From a virus, in the IMG/VR virus record IMGVR_UViG_3300028586_000006, positions 1 to 45,518 of that record: a stretch of 45,518 nt of DNA; one strand, written 5' to 3'. The position numbers were made by a program, and so were the translations under genes. Below the pieces are notes generated by a model. It made no database searches and was not told where the DNA came from. It saw only the letters and a list, made by a program, of their open reading frames with translations. This document shows, piece by piece, positions 24,265-45,518 of this stretch (its first letter is position 1; each line of letters opens with the position of its first letter).

Positions 24265-24792
24265 ATGTACGAGATCAAGATCACCGCCACCACGCTGCCG
24301 GAACTCGCCAGCGCGATCCTTGCTGTCGCCGAGAATTACCGAGCAATCCCTGCAGGGGGCACCATCAGCGACACCGCACCCGCCGACGACAAGCCGAAGC
24401 GCACCCGCGCCAAGGCGGAACCGACCGGCGACGCGGCACCCGCTGCCAGCAAGCTCGAGCCGGCTGACGAGGGAAACGCCGGTGCGAACGCGGGCACGAG
24501 CGCAGCATCCGATACGGTCGGCACGTCACAGGACGATGGCTCGACGTCTTCGACTTCCACGACTGCGACGAGCGCTGCATCCCTTTCTGACGAGAAGCCC
24601 GCCGCCGGCCCGACGCGCGATGACGCGATGTCCGTTGCGGTCAAGTTCAGCCAGAAGCACGGTACCGACGCACTGGAAAAGGCGCTGGAGAAGGTTGGCG
24701 CGAAGAAGTTCAGCGACGTCGGCGCGGACAAATATCAGGCGTTCATCGACGAGATGAACGGTGTCGACAAGGCAGCCAGCGCGCTGTCGTGA
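24265..24792 (+). CDS. Hypothetical protein with a long disordered acidic/Ser-Thr-rich centre
   Basis: 175-aa ORF with GGAGAAC upstream. It has folded-looking N- and C-terminal segments (MYEIKITATTLPELASAIL... and ...KFSQKHGTDALEKALEKVGAKKFSDV). Confidence 0.8.
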   Translation: MYEIKITATTLPELASAILAVAENYRAIPAGGTISDTAPADDKPKRTRAKAEPTGDAAPAASKLEPADEGNAGANAGTSAASDTVGTSQDDGSTSSTSTTATSAASLSDEKPAAGPTRDDAMSVAVKFSQKHGTDALEKALEKVGAKKFSDVGADKYQAFIDEMNGVDKAASALS

Positions 24793-24798
24793 TATCGG

Positions 24799-24885
24799 GG
24801 TGCGGCGCTTTCGGGCGCCGCGCTTCCGGTGAGGGGCGGGACGTCTACCCGCGGGGTCGATTTAGATTTCACCCCGCCCCTCTCC
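24799..24885 (+). promoter_or_regulatory. Structured intergenic RNA element, copy 1 (UUCG hairpin plus a long-range GGTGAGGGGCGGG / CCCGCCCCTCTCC helix)
   Basis: The hairpin is 24802-24808 / 24815-24821. The long-range arms are 24828-24840 and 24873-24885. It is homologous in sequence and architecture to 27068-27170. Confidence 0.55.
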
Positions 24886-24907
24886 CGAAGCACCTGGAGG
24901 ACGAACA

Positions 24908-25093
24908 ATGAAAATCATGATCGAAGTGGACGGCACCAACCCACGGACTGGGGCGCCTGACGTGGCATATCTAACCGTGGTGATCGACGATCTGCTGATT
25001 CGGTCGGTTCGAGGTAGTCGAAAAGCATACATCATGCAGGAAGTCGGCAACGCGATCGACAAGCTGCTAGAAACGGAAGGCGTATTGCAGTGA
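24908..25093 (+). CDS. Hypothetical small protein
   Basis: 61-aa ORF with the SD CTGGAGGAC. G+C is lower. The stop overlaps the next GTG start (GTGA). Confidence 0.7.
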   Translation: MKIMIEVDGTNPRTGAPDVAYLTVVIDDLLIRSVRGSRKAYIMQEVGNAIDKLLETEGVLQ

Positions 25094-26403
25094 CCGAGGT
25101 CGTCGAGAAGAAGCACGCCGTCCTGTCGCCGAGCGGCTACAGCCGGTGGTCGGCCTGTCCCGGTAGCGTGGCGCTCGAAGCGCCGTTCCCGAACCGCGGC
25201 AGCCACTATGCACGCTATGGCACCGCGATGCACGAGATCGGCGAGAAATGCCTGCTCGGCGCTGGCGATGCCGAGCAGTTCGTCGGCGATACGTTCGTCG
25301 TCGAGGGGTACGACATCGTGGTGACGATGGAGATGGCCGACGTCGTCAACGAATACGTGTCATACGTTGGCACGTTCCTCGATGCCGCGGCGGGCGATAT
25401 CATCATGCCCGAGCAGCGCGTGCCGCTGACGCACATGACCGGCGAGGAAGGTGCCGAGGGCACGTCGGACGTCGTCGGCTTCCGCAAGCGCGCGACCGGC
25501 GGCTGGACGATGGTCATCATCGACCTGAAGACCGGGCAGGGCGTGCCGGTGTTCGCCAAGGGCAACGGGCAGCTGCGCATGTACGCCGGCGGAGCGCTGC
25601 GCAAGTTCAGCGCGCTCTATGACGTGGTCGACGTGCAGATGGTCATTATCCAGCCGCCGCTGAAGATCGTCGACGACGAGACGCTGACGGTCGACGAACT
25701 GCGCGCGTTCATGGATGAGGTATCGATCGCCGCCGGACGCACGCAGATCGGGGGCGTCGAGCTGGTGCCGGGCGAGAAGCAGTGCAAGTTCTGCCGTGCC
25801 AAGTCGACCTGCCCGGCGCTGCGTGACGAGGTGCTGGCGACCGTCACCACGATGACGCCTGGCGCGTTCCGCAATCTCGACGATGATATCGCCGCGCTGC
25901 CGAAGACCGTGTCGGCGGAAATCAAGGTGGCGGATGACGGCGAACTGCTCGCCGCGCAGATGCGCAGCCTCAAGCTGGTCGAGGACTGGATGAAGGGTGT
26001 GCGCGCCGAGGTGGAGCGGCGGCTGTTCGAAGGGCAGCCGGTGCCGGGCTTCAAGGTGGTGCAGGGCAAGCAGGGCAACCGCGCGTGGAGCGATCCCGAT
26101 GCCGCGCTGGCGGCGCTCAAGAAGGTGCCGACGCTGAAGATCGACGACGTGGCACCGCGCGCCGTGGTGTCGCCGACCGCTGCCGAGAAGCTGCTGAAGG
26201 GCGACGAGAAGCGCTGGTCGAAGATCGCGCCGCTGATTACGCAGGCACCCGGCAAGCCGTCGGTCGCGCCCGCCAGCGACTCCCGTCCCGAGTATCAGGT
26301 CGTCTCGACGGCCGACAGCTTCGCCACGCTCCCCGCGGCGGAAATCCCCTTGACAAGCGAAAGCGGCAAGGGCAAACCGAGCGTGCAGGATCTGCTCTCG
26401 TAG
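25090..26403 (+). CDS. DUF2800-type PD-(D/E)XK (Cas4/RecB-like) nuclease
   Basis: 437 aa. The N-terminus LSPSGYSRWSACPGS is the DUF2800 signature. A C-terminal Cys cluster reads KQCKFCRAKSTCPA. It is followed by the usual DUF2815 and PolA partners. Confidence 0.85.
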   Translation: MTEVVEKKHAVLSPSGYSRWSACPGSVALEAPFPNRGSHYARYGTAMHEIGEKCLLGAGDAEQFVGDTFVVEGYDIVVTMEMADVVNEYVSYVGTFLDAAAGDIIMPEQRVPLTHMTGEEGAEGTSDVVGFRKRATGGWTMVIIDLKTGQGVPVFAKGNGQLRMYAGGALRKFSALYDVVDVQMVIIQPPLKIVDDETLTVDELRAFMDEVSIAAGRTQIGGVELVPGEKQCKFCRAKSTCPALRDEVLATVTTMTPGAFRNLDDDIAALPKTVSAEIKVADDGELLAAQMRSLKLVEDWMKGVRAEVERRLFEGQPVPGFKVVQGKQGNRAWSDPDAALAALKKVPTLKIDDVAPRAVVSPTAAEKLLKGDEKRWSKIAPLITQAPGKPSVAPASDSRPEYQVVSTADSFATLPAAEIPLTSESGKGKPSVQDLLS

Positions 26404-26443
26404 AGCCTGTCTTTTGGAAGCTACGACACAAGGAAGCTACGAC

Positions 26444-27064
26444 ATGAAGGTGATGTTGATCGATACCCCCGCCGACCCCGTCCGGTTCGGCTTCGCGCAT
26501 CTGTTCACGAAGCGCCCCGGGATGAAGAACCAGGACGGCTCGACCTCCGAAGCGAAATACGAACTGACACCGATCATCGTGCCGGGCGGCGACAACGCCA
26601 AGCGCGTCGAGGAAGCGATCGTCGCGGTCGCCAAGGAGAAGTGGGGCGACAACTGGCGCGATCTCTACGCCGAGTTCGCCGACGACCAGAAGGGGCTGCG
26701 CAAGGGCGACGGCAAGCGCAACCAGTCCGGCGAAACTTATGATGGGTTCGCGGGCAATCTCTTCGTCACTGCGCGCAACACGAACCGCCCCGGCGTGTTC
26801 AACCGCACCGCGGCGCCGGTCGTCGAAGGCGACGACGGCGCGCCGTACAGCGGTTGTTTTGGCAACGTCGAGATCGACGTGTGGGCGCTGAAGAAGCAGG
26901 GCGTGAAGAAGCGGATCGTCATCGATCTGCTCGGTGCACAGAAGACGCGCGACGGTGATGCGTTCGGCGCCGGCAGCGCGCCGTCCAAGGCGTCCGCGTT
27001 CGCCAATCTCTCGGCAGCGGATGACGCCGACGAGAAGCCGAAGGCGACCAGCCTGCTCGGCTGA
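26444..27064 (+). CDS. DUF2815-type single-strand DNA-binding-like protein
   Basis: 206 aa from ATG 26444 (AAGGAAG upstream). MKVMLIDTPADPVRFGFAHLF...KYELTPIIV...GDG...YDGFAGNLFVTARN..RPGV...YSGCFGNVEIDVWA fits DUF2815. The call is supported by synteny with DUF2800 and the DNA polymerase. Confidence 0.8.
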   Translation: MKVMLIDTPADPVRFGFAHLFTKRPGMKNQDGSTSEAKYELTPIIVPGGDNAKRVEEAIVAVAKEKWGDNWRDLYAEFADDQKGLRKGDGKRNQSGETYDGFAGNLFVTARNTNRPGVFNRTAAPVVEGDDGAPYSGCFGNVEIDVWALKKQGVKKRIVIDLLGAQKTRDGDAFGAGSAPSKASAFANLSAADDADEKPKATSLLG

Positions 27065-27067
27065 CAC

Positions 27068-27170
27068 GGTGCGGCGCCTTCGGGCGCCGCGCTTTCGGTG
27101 AGGGGTGCATCGGGCCGCTGACGAGCGGATAGGCCGACGGCCTGCTTGAACGACAGGCGCACCCCTCTCC
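27068..27170 (+). promoter_or_regulatory. Structured intergenic RNA element, copy 2 (C(UUCG)G hairpin plus a long-range GGTGAGGGGTGC / GCACCCCTCTCC helix)
   Basis: The hairpin is 27071-27078 / 27083-27090. The long-range arms are 27097-27108 and 27159-27170. Inner hairpins lie at 27115-27128 and 27131-27143. Confidence 0.55.
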
Positions 27171-27191
27171 TAAAGCGTTCTGGAGAACATC

Positions 27192-27578
27192 GTGGAAATC
27201 TGGCGCGACATCCCCGGATACGAGGGGCGCTATCAGGTCAGTGACGAAGGGCGCGTACGGTCTCTTGATCGACGCGTTCGTCTTTGGACGCTGCAAGGTG
27301 GTGAGCAGTTTGTCAAAAAAGCAGGTCGGGTGCTAACCCCCGGCGTTCTATCGACAGGACATCTCTACGTCTTCCTCGGGCGGGGCAATAGGCGGGCGGT
27401 TCATAGGCTCGTGCTAGAGACGTTTGAAGGGCCATGTCCCGCCGGTATGGAATGTCTGCATGGACCGGATGCAAATCCCGCTAACAATCACCAAAATAAT
27501 CTTCGGTGGGGGACACGAAGCGAAAACTTGAAAGACGATTACGCACGAGGCGTCCGCACGCCAATGGTGTATCTATGA
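27192..27578 (+). CDS. HNH homing endonuclease (NUMOD4 + HNH_3 type)
   Basis: 128 aa with a GTG start after TCTGGAGAAC. WRDIPGYEGRYQVSDEGRVRSL is a NUMOD4-like motif; VHRLVLETFEG...CLHGPDANPANNHQNNLRWGT..EN is the HNH_3 core. G+C is lower. The stop overlaps the DNA polymerase ATG (ATGA). Confidence 0.85.
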   Translation: MEIWRDIPGYEGRYQVSDEGRVRSLDRRVRLWTLQGGEQFVKKAGRVLTPGVLSTGHLYVFLGRGNRRAVHRLVLETFEGPCPAGMECLHGPDANPANNHQNNLRWGTRSENLKDDYARGVRTPMVYL

Positions 27579-29590
27579 CTATTTTGTTTCTGGATATCGA
27601 GAGCTATTCCGATATCCCGATCCGCGACGGCACGCACCGCTATGCCGAGAGCGTCGAGATCACCGTCGCGTCTTGGGCGTTCGATGACGAGCCCGAAGAC
27701 GTGGTCGACCTGACGCTCGGCGGTGGGTTGCCGCGGCGGGTCGTCGACGCGATCCGCGATCCCGCGGTGACAATCGTCGGCCACAACTTTGGCATGTTCG
27801 ACCGCGTCGTGCTGCGCGCGGCCGGGCTCGACATTCCCGCCGATCGGCTGTGGGACACGATGGTGCAGGCTCTGGCGCATGGCCTACCGGGCAGCCTCGA
27901 ACGGCTCGGCGACATCTTCGGCATTAGCGAGGATCAGGCGAAGCTCGCCAGCGGGAAGCGGCTGATCCAGATGTTCTGCAAGCCGGCGCCGAAGAACCAG
28001 ACAGTGCGCCGCCGCACCCGGTTGACTGATCCGAAGGAGTGGGCCGAGTTCCTCGATTACGCGAAGCGCGATATCCCGGCGATGCGCTTCCTCTACCGCA
28101 ACATGCCGCGCTGGAACTATCCCGGCGATCGCACGGCGAACGGCTACCGCGGCGAGTACGACAACTGGCTGCTCGACCAGGCGATCAACGATCGCGGGAT
28201 GTGCGTTGACACCGATCTGGCGCGCGCGGCGATCGACGCCGTCAACAAGGCGCAGAAGGTGCTCGACGCTCGCACCGCCGAGATGACCGATGACGAGGTG
28301 GCGCGCACCTCGCAGCGCGACAAGCTGCTTGCGCATCTGCTCGCCGAATACGGCGTCACGCTGCCCGATATGGCGAAGACCACTCTCGAGCGACGGCTGC
28401 ACGATGACAATCTGCCCGACGCGGTGCGCGAGCTGCTCGCGAACCGGCTGGAGAGCAGCACGACGTCGAACAGCAAATACAACGCGCTGCTGCGCGGCGT
28501 GTCGCGCGATGGCCGACTGCGCGGCACGCTCCAGTTCTGCGGCGCCGCGCGCACCGGCCGTGATGCCGGGCGGTTGTTCCAGCCGCAGAACCTGCCGCGA
28601 CCCGATATGGCGGCAGCGGATATCGAACACGGTATCGCGGCGCTGAAGGCGGGCACCGCGCACCTGCTGTTCGACAGCCCGATCAAGCTGGCGAGCAACG
28701 CTATCCGCGGTTGCATCGTCGCCGCGCCCGGGCGCAAGCTGGTCGTCGGCGACTTCGCGCAGATCGAAGCGCGTGTCCTGCCCTGGCTGGCGGGTGAGCA
28801 GTGGAAGCTCGATGCGTTCGCCGCCTATGACGCCGGCGAGGGGCCGGATCTCTACAAGGCGACCGCGGCGCGCGTCACCGGTAAGCCCGTCGACGAGGTG
28901 ACGAAGCCCGACCGTCAGCGCTATGGCAAGGTGCCCGAGCTCGCGTGTGGCTACGGCGGCGCGAAGGGCGCGTTCTTGTCCATGTCCCGCCTGCTCGGCG
29001 GTGACGAGATGCCGGAAGCGCAGGCCAAGGAGATCGTCGACGCGTGGCGCGCGGCAAACCCCGCGATCGCCGACTGGGATGACGGGCTATGGGCGCTGCT
29101 GAACCGCGCTGCCTTTGACGCGATGCGGTCACCGGGTCAGGTGTTCTCGGTCAACGGCAAGATGACTTTCGAGAAGTGGCGCGCGTGGCTGCGCTTCACG
29201 CTGCCGAGTGGACGCGCGCTCTGCTACGCGGATCCGCAGATCATCGAAGACCCGCGGATGCCGGGCAAGATGACGCTCTCCTACATGGGGCTGAACAGCT
29301 ATACCCGCAAATGGGAACGGCTGACGACCTACGGCGGCAAGCTGTCGGCGGACGGTACGCAGGCGACAGCGCGCGATCTGCTATGGCACGCAGCGCAGAA
29401 CGTTGAGCGCGCTGGCTATCCGATCCTGACCCGCATCCACGACGAACTGGTGACCGAACCGCTTGACAGCGACAAGTTCAATGTGGCAGGGATGATCGCC
29501 GAGATGACCCGCCGTCCGTGGTGGATCGACGATGCGCTGCCCCTCGCCGCTGACGGCTTCGAGGGACCGCGTTATCGGAAGGACGGCTAA
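27575..29590 (+). CDS. Family A DNA polymerase with a 3'-5' exonuclease domain
   Basis: 671 aa from ATG 27575.
- ExoI: FLDIESYS.
- Motif A: VVGDFAQIEARVL.
- Motif B: RQRYGKVPELACGYGGA.
- Motif C: RIHDELV. Confidence 0.9.
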   Translation: MTILFLDIESYSDIPIRDGTHRYAESVEITVASWAFDDEPEDVVDLTLGGGLPRRVVDAIRDPAVTIVGHNFGMFDRVVLRAAGLDIPADRLWDTMVQALAHGLPGSLERLGDIFGISEDQAKLASGKRLIQMFCKPAPKNQTVRRRTRLTDPKEWAEFLDYAKRDIPAMRFLYRNMPRWNYPGDRTANGYRGEYDNWLLDQAINDRGMCVDTDLARAAIDAVNKAQKVLDARTAEMTDDEVARTSQRDKLLAHLLAEYGVTLPDMAKTTLERRLHDDNLPDAVRELLANRLESSTTSNSKYNALLRGVSRDGRLRGTLQFCGAARTGRDAGRLFQPQNLPRPDMAAADIEHGIAALKAGTAHLLFDSPIKLASNAIRGCIVAAPGRKLVVGDFAQIEARVLPWLAGEQWKLDAFAAYDAGEGPDLYKATAARVTGKPVDEVTKPDRQRYGKVPELACGYGGAKGAFLSMSRLLGGDEMPEAQAKEIVDAWRAANPAIADWDDGLWALLNRAAFDAMRSPGQVFSVNGKMTFEKWRAWLRFTLPSGRALCYADPQIIEDPRMPGKMTLSYMGLNSYTRKWERLTTYGGKLSADGTQATARDLLWHAAQNVERAGYPILTRIHDELVTEPLDSDKFNVAGMIAEMTRRPWWIDDALPLAADGFEGPRYRKDG

Positions 29591-45159: not shown

Positions 45160-45518
45160 CAGCCGATCCTGCTCTGCGCACGCATCTTGCTGGTCTGCGA
45201 CGCTGCGCCGAGCAGCGTACCTGCCGCGCCGATAGCGCCCGACACGAACGCGGCATTGCCTTCGCTGCGCGCCGCGCGACCTTTCATCACGTAGTTCGCC
45301 GCGTTGATATCGTAGCCCTGCACCTCGCGCCGGGTGTTCTCGGCGATCGTGCTGCTATCCTCGTATCCAATTTGCGCGGTGTCGAGTTGCATGTCCATCG
45401 TCGAGCCGAAGGTCAGGTCGAGCCCGTTCGCGGCGCTGGCGGCGCGTTGCGCGCCGATCGACTGCGCGAGCATCCGATAGCGCTGAAGCTGCGCCGTCTG
45501 TCCGCGCGATACCGCATC
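45159..45518 (-). CDS. C-terminal part of the gp14-position internal virion protein (same gene as 1..283; 45392-45518 duplicates 1-127)
   Basis: Track ORF 45159..45473 (MLAQSIGAQRAASAANGLDL...) stays open to the window edge and is in frame with 1..283 through the end repeat. Confidence 0.75.
   Translation of the reverse strand, partial: DAVSRGQTAQLQRYRMLAQSIGAQRAASAANGLDLTFGSTMDMQLDTAQIGYEDSSTIAENTRREVQGYDINAANYVMKGRAARSEGNAAFVSGAIGAAGTLLGAASQTSKMRAQSRIG
45392..45518. repeat. Second copy of the 127-bp terminal repeat
   Basis: Identical to 1-127 by direct reading. Confidence 0.95.

Follow-up and report, generated by a model that had tools for sequence, protein, structure and literature searches.

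Introduction

Phage T7 carries intercistronic RNase III sites (R0.3 to R18.5), which are irregular hairpins composed of an upper stem, an internal loop and a lower stem and at which cleavage has been demonstrated. In phage lambda, the sib/tI retroregulator is a single site at which extension of the transcript lengthens the same stem and which acts backwards on int. The REP/BIME stabilizer hairpins (for example, between malE and malF) occur host-genome-wide in hundreds of copies, without a conserved second helix or a Shine–Dalgarno (SD) sequence, and RNA operators are familiar from T4 gp43 and gp32 autoregulation, RegA and the ribosomal-protein operators. Here, we describe an intercistronic element with features of several of these systems, present in two copies (E1 and E2) in the 45,518-nucleotide (nt) virus record IMGVR_UViG_3300028586_000006 from IMG/VR, the whole of which was analyzed and is referred to as the window. 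Each copy consists of a short GC-rich hairpin (H1) followed, with no gap, by a long helix (H2), and ends just before the ribosome-binding site (RBS) of the next gene. We read E1 and E2 as paralogous copies of a cis-acting, sense-strand intercistronic RNA punctuation module, a reading in which our confidence is about even.

The logic that we favour for this module appears closest to that of the T7 sites and of sib/tI. H2 is a sense-strand intercistronic duplex of about two helical turns and is irregular, as are the T7 sites, with which it also shares internal mismatches, a location between cistrons in phage early mRNA just before the next RBS, and conservation of structure above sequence. Unlike the T7 sites, the element includes an abutting tetraloop hairpin, and the length and mismatches of H2 vary by lineage. 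In common with sib/tI, a terminator-adjacent sequence would be duplexed only in read-through RNA, leading to different RNA fates: the U-run and junction nucleotides that follow H1 form the 5′ base of H2, the 3′ arm of which is found 50–85 nt downstream. In contrast to sib/tI, the second helix abuts the first and there are two copies, each between co-transcribed genes. The element resembles REP/BIME sequences in being a GC-rich intercistronic hairpin after a highly expressed cistron, which is consistent with differential expression in an operon, whereas REP- and MITE-type repeats are dispersed in many copies over non-syntenic sites, unlike this element, whose two copies keep their syntenic places in every relative. 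The DUF2800 and DUF2815 RNA motifs, reportedly described by Weinberg et al. in 2017 as candidate cis-regulatory RNAs from Firmicutes, are said to be named for the same neighbouring gene families as those found here, DUF2815 now being the Enc34 SSB family.

In Rfam searches, only a tRNA reached the gathering score in the window, positions 24600–27400 gave chance matches only at E ≤10 (all with E ≥0.8), and ten relatives, including Bordetella phage BPP-1 and BcepC6B, gave 0 matches. Full-text literature searches likewise retrieved no description of the element. It is genuine, conserved and uncurated, and is related in kind to the intercistronic terminator and processing hairpins of phages.

Structure of the two copies

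The two copies and their parts are as follows.

24799..24899, + strand: E1, composed of a GGUG lead, H1, H2 and a CUGGAG RBS; covariance model score, 84.7 bits
24802..24821, + strand: H1 of E1, GCGGCGCU-UUCG-GGCGCCGC, an 8-bp GC hairpin with a UUCG loop
24822..24891, + strand: H2 of E1, with arms 24822–24840 and 24873–24891; 17 pairs plus C.C and U.U 1x1 mismatches
24894..24900, + strand: SD of E1, CUGGAGG, 7 nt upstream of the ATG at 24908 and conserved with the element
27068..27185, + strand: E2, composed of a GGUG lead, H1, H2 and CUGGAG; covariance model score, 78.1 bits
27071..27090, + strand: H1 of E2, GCGGCGCC-UUCG-GGCGCCGC, in which the closing pair is the canonical C(UUCG)G
27091..27176, + strand: H2 of E2, with arms 27091–27108 and 27159–27176; 16 pairs plus C.U and U.U mismatches
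27180..27185, + strand: SD of E2, CUGGAG, preceding the GTG at 27192

E1 is located between the stop codon of a 175-amino-acid (aa) open reading frame (ORF; 24792) and the start codon of a 61-aa ORF (24908), and E2 between the stop codon of a single-stranded DNA (ssDNA)-binding protein (SSB) gene (27064) and the start codon of an HNH endonuclease gene (27192). An earlier reading of the window made without database searches (hereafter the sequence-only reading) had drawn attention to near-identical sequences at the start of these two gaps, and the sequences and coordinates that it gave for both copies are correct: the 38-mers at 24799–24836 and 27068–27105 share 36 bases and differ at 2 positions, and matches to the repeat pattern occurred in none of 100 shuffles. 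No third copy was detected in the window by repeat search or by a covariance-model scan with filters off.

The same reading had proposed that sequence following the hairpin pairs with a distal segment, and this pairing was recovered, with GGTGAGGGGCGGG (24828–24840) opposite CCCGCCCCTCTCC (24873–24885) in copy 1 and GGTGAGGGGTGC (27097–27108) opposite GCACCCCTCTCC (27159–27170) in copy 2, as were the T.T mismatch in both copies and the unrelated inserts of 32 and 50 nt. The extent of the helix had been under-called, folding adding seven basal positions that reach the H1 hairpin. In its full extent, H2 comprises 18–19 positions with two 1x1 mismatches, and its first nucleotide comes directly after H1. 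The base of the helix is GCUUC-C-GG / CC-C-GAAGC in copy 1 and GCUUU-C-GG / CC-U-AAAGC in copy 2, which brings one more compensatory change between the copies (C-G to U-A). The apex measures 32 nt in E1 (24841–24872) and is unrelated in sequence to that of E2, which measures 50 nt and is predicted to branch. H1 of E1 can be extended to 10 bp through the upstream GU and the downstream GC. Fold z-scores were −3.05 (copy 1) and −5.7 (copy 2). The gap from the end of H2 to the CUGGAG RBS is 2–3 nt, and folding left the SD and start codon of both window copies unsequestered by H1 or H2. No sigma-70-like promoter site was found at or within either copy.

Conservation and covariation in related phages

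Relatives were recovered by using the exonuclease gene as an anchor in combination with a degenerate core pattern. The resulting core set consists of six related uncultured phages, namely the window, L001 (IMG/VR 3300017693_000001), L002 (3300017421_000003), L095 (3300035156_000051) and the short metagenome contigs L098 and L099, which together contain ten copies of the element. These are always found at the same two syntenic positions, and every contig spanning both positions has both copies. As an untrimmed MAFFT alignment mis-registered the 3′ arms, we built an apex-trimmed seed and then realigned the full-length copies to the covariance model derived from it.

Across the ten copies, H1 is near-invariant, with C-G to U-G changes only and 100% of its positions paired. 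The pattern in H2 is one of extensive covariation: both sides of the pair have changed in a compensatory manner at 9 of 19 pairs in the apex-trimmed structural alignment, and 91.8% of cells are paired, compared with 43–57% when the 3′ partner is slid by 1–3 columns. The observed value was reached on any of five measures by 0 of 500 column shuffles. Whole arms have been replaced with pairing retained, as in GGUGAGGGG/CCCCUCUCC compared with GAUAACGCG/CGCGUUAUC and GAUGAAGGG/CCCUUCUUC. RNAalifold predicted both H1 and H2 on the realigned full-length copies and left the two mismatch columns unpaired; these 1x1 mismatch positions are kept in 8 of the 10 copies. The case for a functional RNA structure supported by covariation, which the sequence-only reading had made from two copies, is thus strongly borne out in the larger set. 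Minimum-energy folding of the window copies gave an outer helix enclosing both hairpins (P0, GGUG/CACC), which several distant lineages also show; as only 4–5 of the 10 core copies have it, it was excluded from the element.

The near-invariance of H1 is found among flanking genes that have diverged to around 71–79% amino-acid identity, which suggests a sequence-specific ligand or homogenization by recombination.

Strand and nature of the molecule

The element is very probably a sense-strand RNA. Non-Watson–Crick cells in the core clade comprise 19 G.U against 5 A.C, three of the latter in one chimeric copy, and the corresponding family-wide numbers are 16 and 6. Eight of the 10 core copies have UUCG or UACG as the H1 loop, and the covariance model scored the + strand at 66–85 bits and the − strand at 20–25 bits. 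The orientation of the element is always sense, between a stop codon and an SD.

Covariation alone cannot separate RNA from ssDNA of the same strand, and the element is located in a replication/recombination module, adjoining SSB and polymerase genes, where a structure in ssDNA might act in replication or recombination, for example as a priming or loading signal, with the hairpins forming in the displaced + strand. The G-rich 5′ arm and C-rich 3′ arm of H2 would also favour R-loop formation. We nevertheless regard an ssDNA structure as most unlikely, in that UNCG and GNRA tetraloops are RNA stability motifs, the SD is conserved as part of an invariably sense-oriented unit, and no AT-rich unwinding region or iterons were found nearby.

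Occurrence of the architecture in other phages

In more distant relatives, the covariance model gave weak + strand matches at the homologous position after the SSB gene, and each fetched locus was inspected directly. Around 20 further lineages have the same architecture after the SSB gene with unrelated sequence, consisting of a GC-rich hairpin, the loop of which is often of the UNCG or GNRA type, and a long helix that follows with no gap and precedes the SD of the next gene. In these, a run of U or pyrimidines right after the hairpin forms the 5′ base of the long helix. In L046, for example, H1 is AGCCCCCC...GGGGGGCU and is followed by CUUUUGGUGAGGG.../...CCCUCGCCAAAAG; H1 is followed by an H2 based on UUUAUUCU/AGAAUAAA in L021 and by one based on UCUUCGG/CCGAAGA in L070. 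L080 contains two complete H1–H2 modules in tandem 3′ of the SSB gene (8134–8345), and L003 and L012 have a module directly before the exonuclease gene as well as one after SSB. The cultured Bordetella phage BPP-1 also has a module, located between bbp40 (SSB-annealase) and bbp41, with H1 CCCGGCC-UUCG-GGCCGGG and H2 CGCUUUGGCUGGGGCG/CGCCCCAGCCAAAGCG (z = −3.3). The module is common rather than universal, since some relatives have H1 only: H1 without H2 was found in L031/L088, L035, L065 and one Escherichia coli phage, L101 (vB_EcoM-606R2), in which the simple hairpin after SSB is followed by a reverse-strand AT-rich insert. Repeat, structure, covariation, position and breadth are properties of the element as observed, and its universally conserved property is the pair of abutting helices, not termination. 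A generic scanner for a hairpin with an abutting long helix was too unspecific at 67% GC to be of use, returning 48 matches in the window and 16–38 in shuffles.

A number of lineages differ in what lies between SSB and the module. In L004–L030 (for example, L004 from 7757 onward), L063 and L025, a small conserved gene overlaps the SSB stop codon and the H1–H2 module follows that gene; its product carries the motif GHN...L..L.ERIE.LEEEKK.I..DIKDV..EAK..G.D.KI. A set of BcepC6B-like phages and prophages (L051, which is phage BcepC6B, at 7963–8180; L055, L060, L069, L071, L076 and L090) has a conserved non-coding stretch of around 180 nt after SSB, CGCGGGGCGCTCGTCTCC...GGCATGCGCAAACCGCGAGCGCTGAAATCAGACAGCGGAAAGATCGGGACGCCGG, which gave no Rfam match and may be a separate structured RNA.

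The turnover of H1 sequence bears on the possibility that an RNA-binding protein, of phage or host, uses the element as an operator and thereby represses or activates translation of the next gene. Such an operator would combine the GGUG lead and the invariant H1 with the conserved base of H2 and its fixed mismatches. Within the core clade, the near-invariance of H1 and its flanks while H2 and the neighbouring genes vary, the retention of the mismatch positions, the end of the element 2–3 nt before the SD, and the presence of copy 2 directly before the polymerase gene in a relative without an inserted ORF are all in keeping with it. Outside the core clade, the sequence of H1 is wholly different while the architecture is kept, so that the ligand would need to have co-evolved in each lineage. 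Furthermore, the SD and start codon are left free by both H1 and H2, the downstream genes differ among phages so that no one target is constantly regulated, and no candidate RNA-binding protein was identified. We therefore consider an operator unlikely.

Over 28 H2 helices, 92% of 462 basal positions are Watson–Crick paired, and the arms are asymmetric in composition, the 5′ arms being G/U-rich (G 193, C 85) and the 3′ arms C/A-rich. The 5′ arm is SD-like (GGUGA, GGAGGUG) in the window (24828–24836), L087, L080 and L061, and the 3′ arm of the same copies (24877–24885 in the window) resembles the 16S anti-SD (CCUCACC, CACCUCC). Were the anti-SD-like 3′ arm to pair with the true SD, only 5 bp would form (UCUCC/GGAGA), which is too weak to claim.

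At the junction between the helices, the core clade has GCGCUUU, and L046, L070 and L087 have GCUCUUUU or UGCUCUU, which resembles boxA; the G/U-rich stretch that comes next makes up one side of a long stem, as it does in rrn leaders. These features would fit a cis-acting processive antiterminator RNA in the manner of HK022 put or of the nut and rrn leaders (boxB-boxA-boxC), with hairpins that would bind the transcribing polymerase, or use the GCUCUUU-like junction to recruit Nus factors, and so confer resistance to downstream terminators. HK022 put is an RNA of ~70 nt with two stem-loops, fixed bulges and a triplex, which is present in two similar copies (putL and putR) in two separate operons, downstream of early promoters and ahead of the terminators that it suppresses, and binds the zinc-binding domain of the RNA polymerase β′ subunit (PMC9378689). 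The element shares with put two adjacent stem-loops and two sequence-similar copies per genome in early transcripts. It differs in its size of 66–122 nt with a variable H2 apex, in an H1 that is a perfect GC hairpin with a U-run and resembles a terminator rather than put stem I, and in the location of both copies 2.3 kb apart in one operon within a co-directional block, away from promoters. Moreover, a consensus scan found no strong downstream terminator to suppress, boxA lacks its AACAA half here, and a likeness to boxA is to be expected of any GC stem with a U-run after it, all of which makes antitermination very unlikely. More broadly, the abutting helices could represent a widespread, undescribed class of phage regulatory RNA acting on the host expression machinery, either put- or nut/rrn-like or with an SD-mimicking 5′ arm caged by an anti-SD-mimicking 3′ arm. 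We hold this to be rather improbable; on such a reading, the conservation of H1 and the G/U versus C/A asymmetry of the arms may reflect contacts with that machinery.

Genomic context

The window is GC-rich (67% GC), and both copies are located in its replication/recombination module, within an early/replication + strand block of approximately 20.9–33.8 kb. Positions 1–127 and 45392–45518 are identical, which indicates a circularly closed, complete phage genome of about 45.4 kb. The module is arranged in the order 175-aa gene, gap 1, 61-aa ORF, exonuclease, SSB-annealase, gap 2, NUMOD4-HNH and PolA.

24265..24792, + strand: 175-aa gene, phrog_408, conserved and of unknown function; its stop codon is 6 nt before E1
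24908..25093, + strand: 61-aa ORFan in variable slot 1; its stop codon overlaps the exonuclease start (GTGA)
25090..26403, + strand: DUF2800 / PD-(D/E)XK exonuclease, a core gene and the right edge of slot 1
26414..27064, + strand: Enc34/Gp2.5-like ssDNA-binding/annealing protein (SSB); its stop codon is 3 nt before E2
27192..27578, + strand: NUMOD4-HNH homing-type endonuclease in variable slot 2, with a GTG start; its stop codon overlaps the PolA ATG (ATGA)
27575..29590, + strand: family A DNA polymerase (PolA), a core gene and the right edge of slot 2; start assigned by homology to L095

For SSB, we used the start at 26414; that of the sequence-only reading, 26444, is equally possible. The nearest cultured phages are BPP-1-like and BcepC6B-like, with an exonuclease identity of merely ~37–40%. 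Only three sizeable gaps interrupt the + strand gene block, namely E1, E2 and a canonical terminator.

This canonical intrinsic terminator (23816–23850) has a 14-bp stem and a UUUUU tail. Directly 3′ of it (site 23816–23866) is a perfect 15-bp palindrome, CTTGTTGACAACAAG, which includes a consensus TTGACA; its sequence suggests that an operator overlaps a −35 box where the replication operon begins. A tRNA gene (1181–1251, + strand; Rfam RF00005, 52.5 bits) adjoins the late genes on the − strand.

H1 as a possible terminator

Terminator strength was estimated with an index of the d'Aubenton-Carafa type, computed with ViennaRNA energies. The stem of H1 is 8–10 bp, with a free energy of −15 to −22 kcal/mol; the 10-bp form (GUGCGGCGCC/GGCGCCGCGC) takes two junction nucleotides that are otherwise in the base of H2 and, in copy 2, is followed directly by UUUCGG. 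The scores were as follows.

L021, the best relative: +29
Copy 2: +17.8
Canonical terminator of the window (23816–23850): +14.3
Copy 1: −8
L003_E1, the worst relative: −42

The sequence-only reading had held the element to be probably not a simple terminator. This stands insofar as conservation of H2 makes the element more than a terminator, but it needs qualification with regard to H1, as the 10-bp hairpin of copy 2 runs into UUU and scores much like the canonical terminator, and several relatives have a canonical U-run. Termination at H1 is plausible from the sequence of copy 2 and of many relatives, and would probably be partial.

Variable genes downstream of the element

Each copy forms the exact left boundary of a slot in which ORF-sized replacements have occurred. 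In slot 1, a different ORF follows copy 1 in all six phages; none of these six ORFs has a Pfam match, and forced alignment gave 14–24% identity, the ORFs of the window and L095 sharing a 9-residue patch only. The 61-aa ORF of the window has no relative in IMG/VR, matched only itself among 5.8 billion protein clusters, and was not found in other element contexts by contig look-up. Slot 2, after copy 2, is occupied as follows.

Window: HNH endonuclease
L002: N6/N4 DNA methylase
L001: 47-aa ORF
L095: nothing, copy 2 being followed directly by PolA

In both slots, the stop codon of the inserted ORF overlaps the start of the core gene as ATGA or GTGA. Pairwise homology ends within a few bases of the start codon of the slot ORF and is regained at the next core gene or just within it: that between the window and L098 covers 23926–24915 and continues from 25091, and that between the window and L001 extends up to 27192 and again from 27585. 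Global-alignment identity of flanks versus element was uninformative, as unrelated GC-rich genes also give ~75%. On its right, each slot is closed by a core-gene start codon, and a second element is missing there, unlike integron cassettes, each of which is bounded by attC recombination hairpins.

In L095, copy 2 is mixed: its 5′ arm is identical over 18 nt to copy 1 of that phage, whereas its 3′ arm belongs to the copy-2 type, which indicates a footprint of gene conversion between the copies. The HNH gene of the window (27192–27578) is free-standing, has a locally lower GC content and is placed exactly between E2 and PolA. As L095 is without an HNH gene, a candidate target for homing is the site where E2 meets PolA in phages of the HNH-less kind. 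In L101 (vB_EcoM-606R2; 4907–5536), a very AT-rich gene on the reverse strand lies between SSB and PolA, which is a further sign that this junction could be a hot spot for insertions in general.

Around each short interval, conserved DNA is limited to the element and the beginning of the core gene that follows, and homologous recombination between related phages would, for that reason, swap whole ORFs within it. This raises the possibility that the element acts primarily as DNA, a conserved homology patch for which the RNA fold is secondary. The variety of ORFs in the two slots, the breakpoints that coincide exactly with the edge of element and start codon and with the beginning of the following core gene, the gene-conversion footprint in L095 and the exonuclease/annealase pair encoded between the two copies are all consistent with this, and there is a published precedent in the PeSLs of T4-type phages, composite terminator/promoter repeats at gene-shuffling joints (PMC4122927, PMC2839356). 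Like PeSLs, the element is a repeated stem-loop motif bordering variable, mostly ORFan genes at recombination joints; it differs in having no promoter-like site and in occupying two fixed positions per genome, whereas PeSLs are numerous in hyperplastic regions. Structure is not required of a homology patch, yet H2 shows compensatory changes and the architecture has outlasted the turnover of its sequence. Selection alone also predicts ORF-exact mosaic joints. A linker as primary function is thus improbable; the pattern is real, and is more likely a consequence of the element.

Proposed function and implications

On the punctuation-module reading that we favour, the effects on termination, processing and expression are proposed from sequence and fold. 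H1, with its UNCG tetraloop, would fold as RNA polymerase leaves the upstream gene and, together with the short U-run, would act as a leaky intrinsic terminator, the hairpin protecting the 3′ end of the upstream message, which includes that for SSB, a protein needed in bulk. Polymerases that read through would transcribe the distal C/A-rich arm, which would then pair with the U-run and the G-rich stretch after H1. H2 would form flush on H1 in read-through RNA only, burying the U-run and yielding a helix of ~17–20 positions stacked on H1 and ending 2–3 nt before the next RBS. Such a stacked duplex has the geometry of an RNase III-type processing site or of a 5′ stabilizer. The fates of the upstream and downstream cistrons would in this way be uncoupled, the exonuclease and DNA polymerase being needed in small amounts. 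An RNase III-type site, an attenuator and translational control, the functions put forward in the sequence-only reading, are all still candidates.

Several observations weigh against this reading. The basal length of H2 varies from 9 to 23 pairs family-wide and the U.U mismatch is lost outside the core clade, which is looser than expected of a strict RNase III determinant. A role in termination or processing alone leaves the near-invariance of H1 unexplained. The U-run of copy 1 is merely UU, in line with its score of −8, several relatives score between −20 and −42, and the consensus terminator scan (5 T in 8 required) flags neither copy; termination is, as a result, not a universal property of H1. 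Finally, the gap between sense and antisense folding energies is small, the sense strand being the more stable in only 7 of 11 cases, and the strand call for this reason rests on the G.U excess, the UNCG loops and the sense orientation.

Beyond what the sequence-only reading had noted are the recurrence of the element at the same two positions in relatives, the reach of the architecture to BPP-1 and the variable-ORF slot at each copy. The slots are two exact hot spots for the loading of ORFan genes, a homing endonuclease and a DNA methylase, and are a good place to hunt for anti-defence genes as well as a natural insertion site for engineering. The element itself is easily recognized as a tetraloop hairpin abutting a long helix with the post-hairpin U-run in its base, and its presence in the cultured phage BPP-1 makes it directly testable. 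If our reading is true, the element would constitute a new Rfam family and, after the T4-type PeSLs, a second independent case of regulatory stem-loops at gene-shuffling joints. It would also be a common, unannotated RNA device setting expression ratios in the replication operon of many temperate podophages of Betaproteobacteria, a group that includes BPP-1, the model phage for diversity-generating retroelements.

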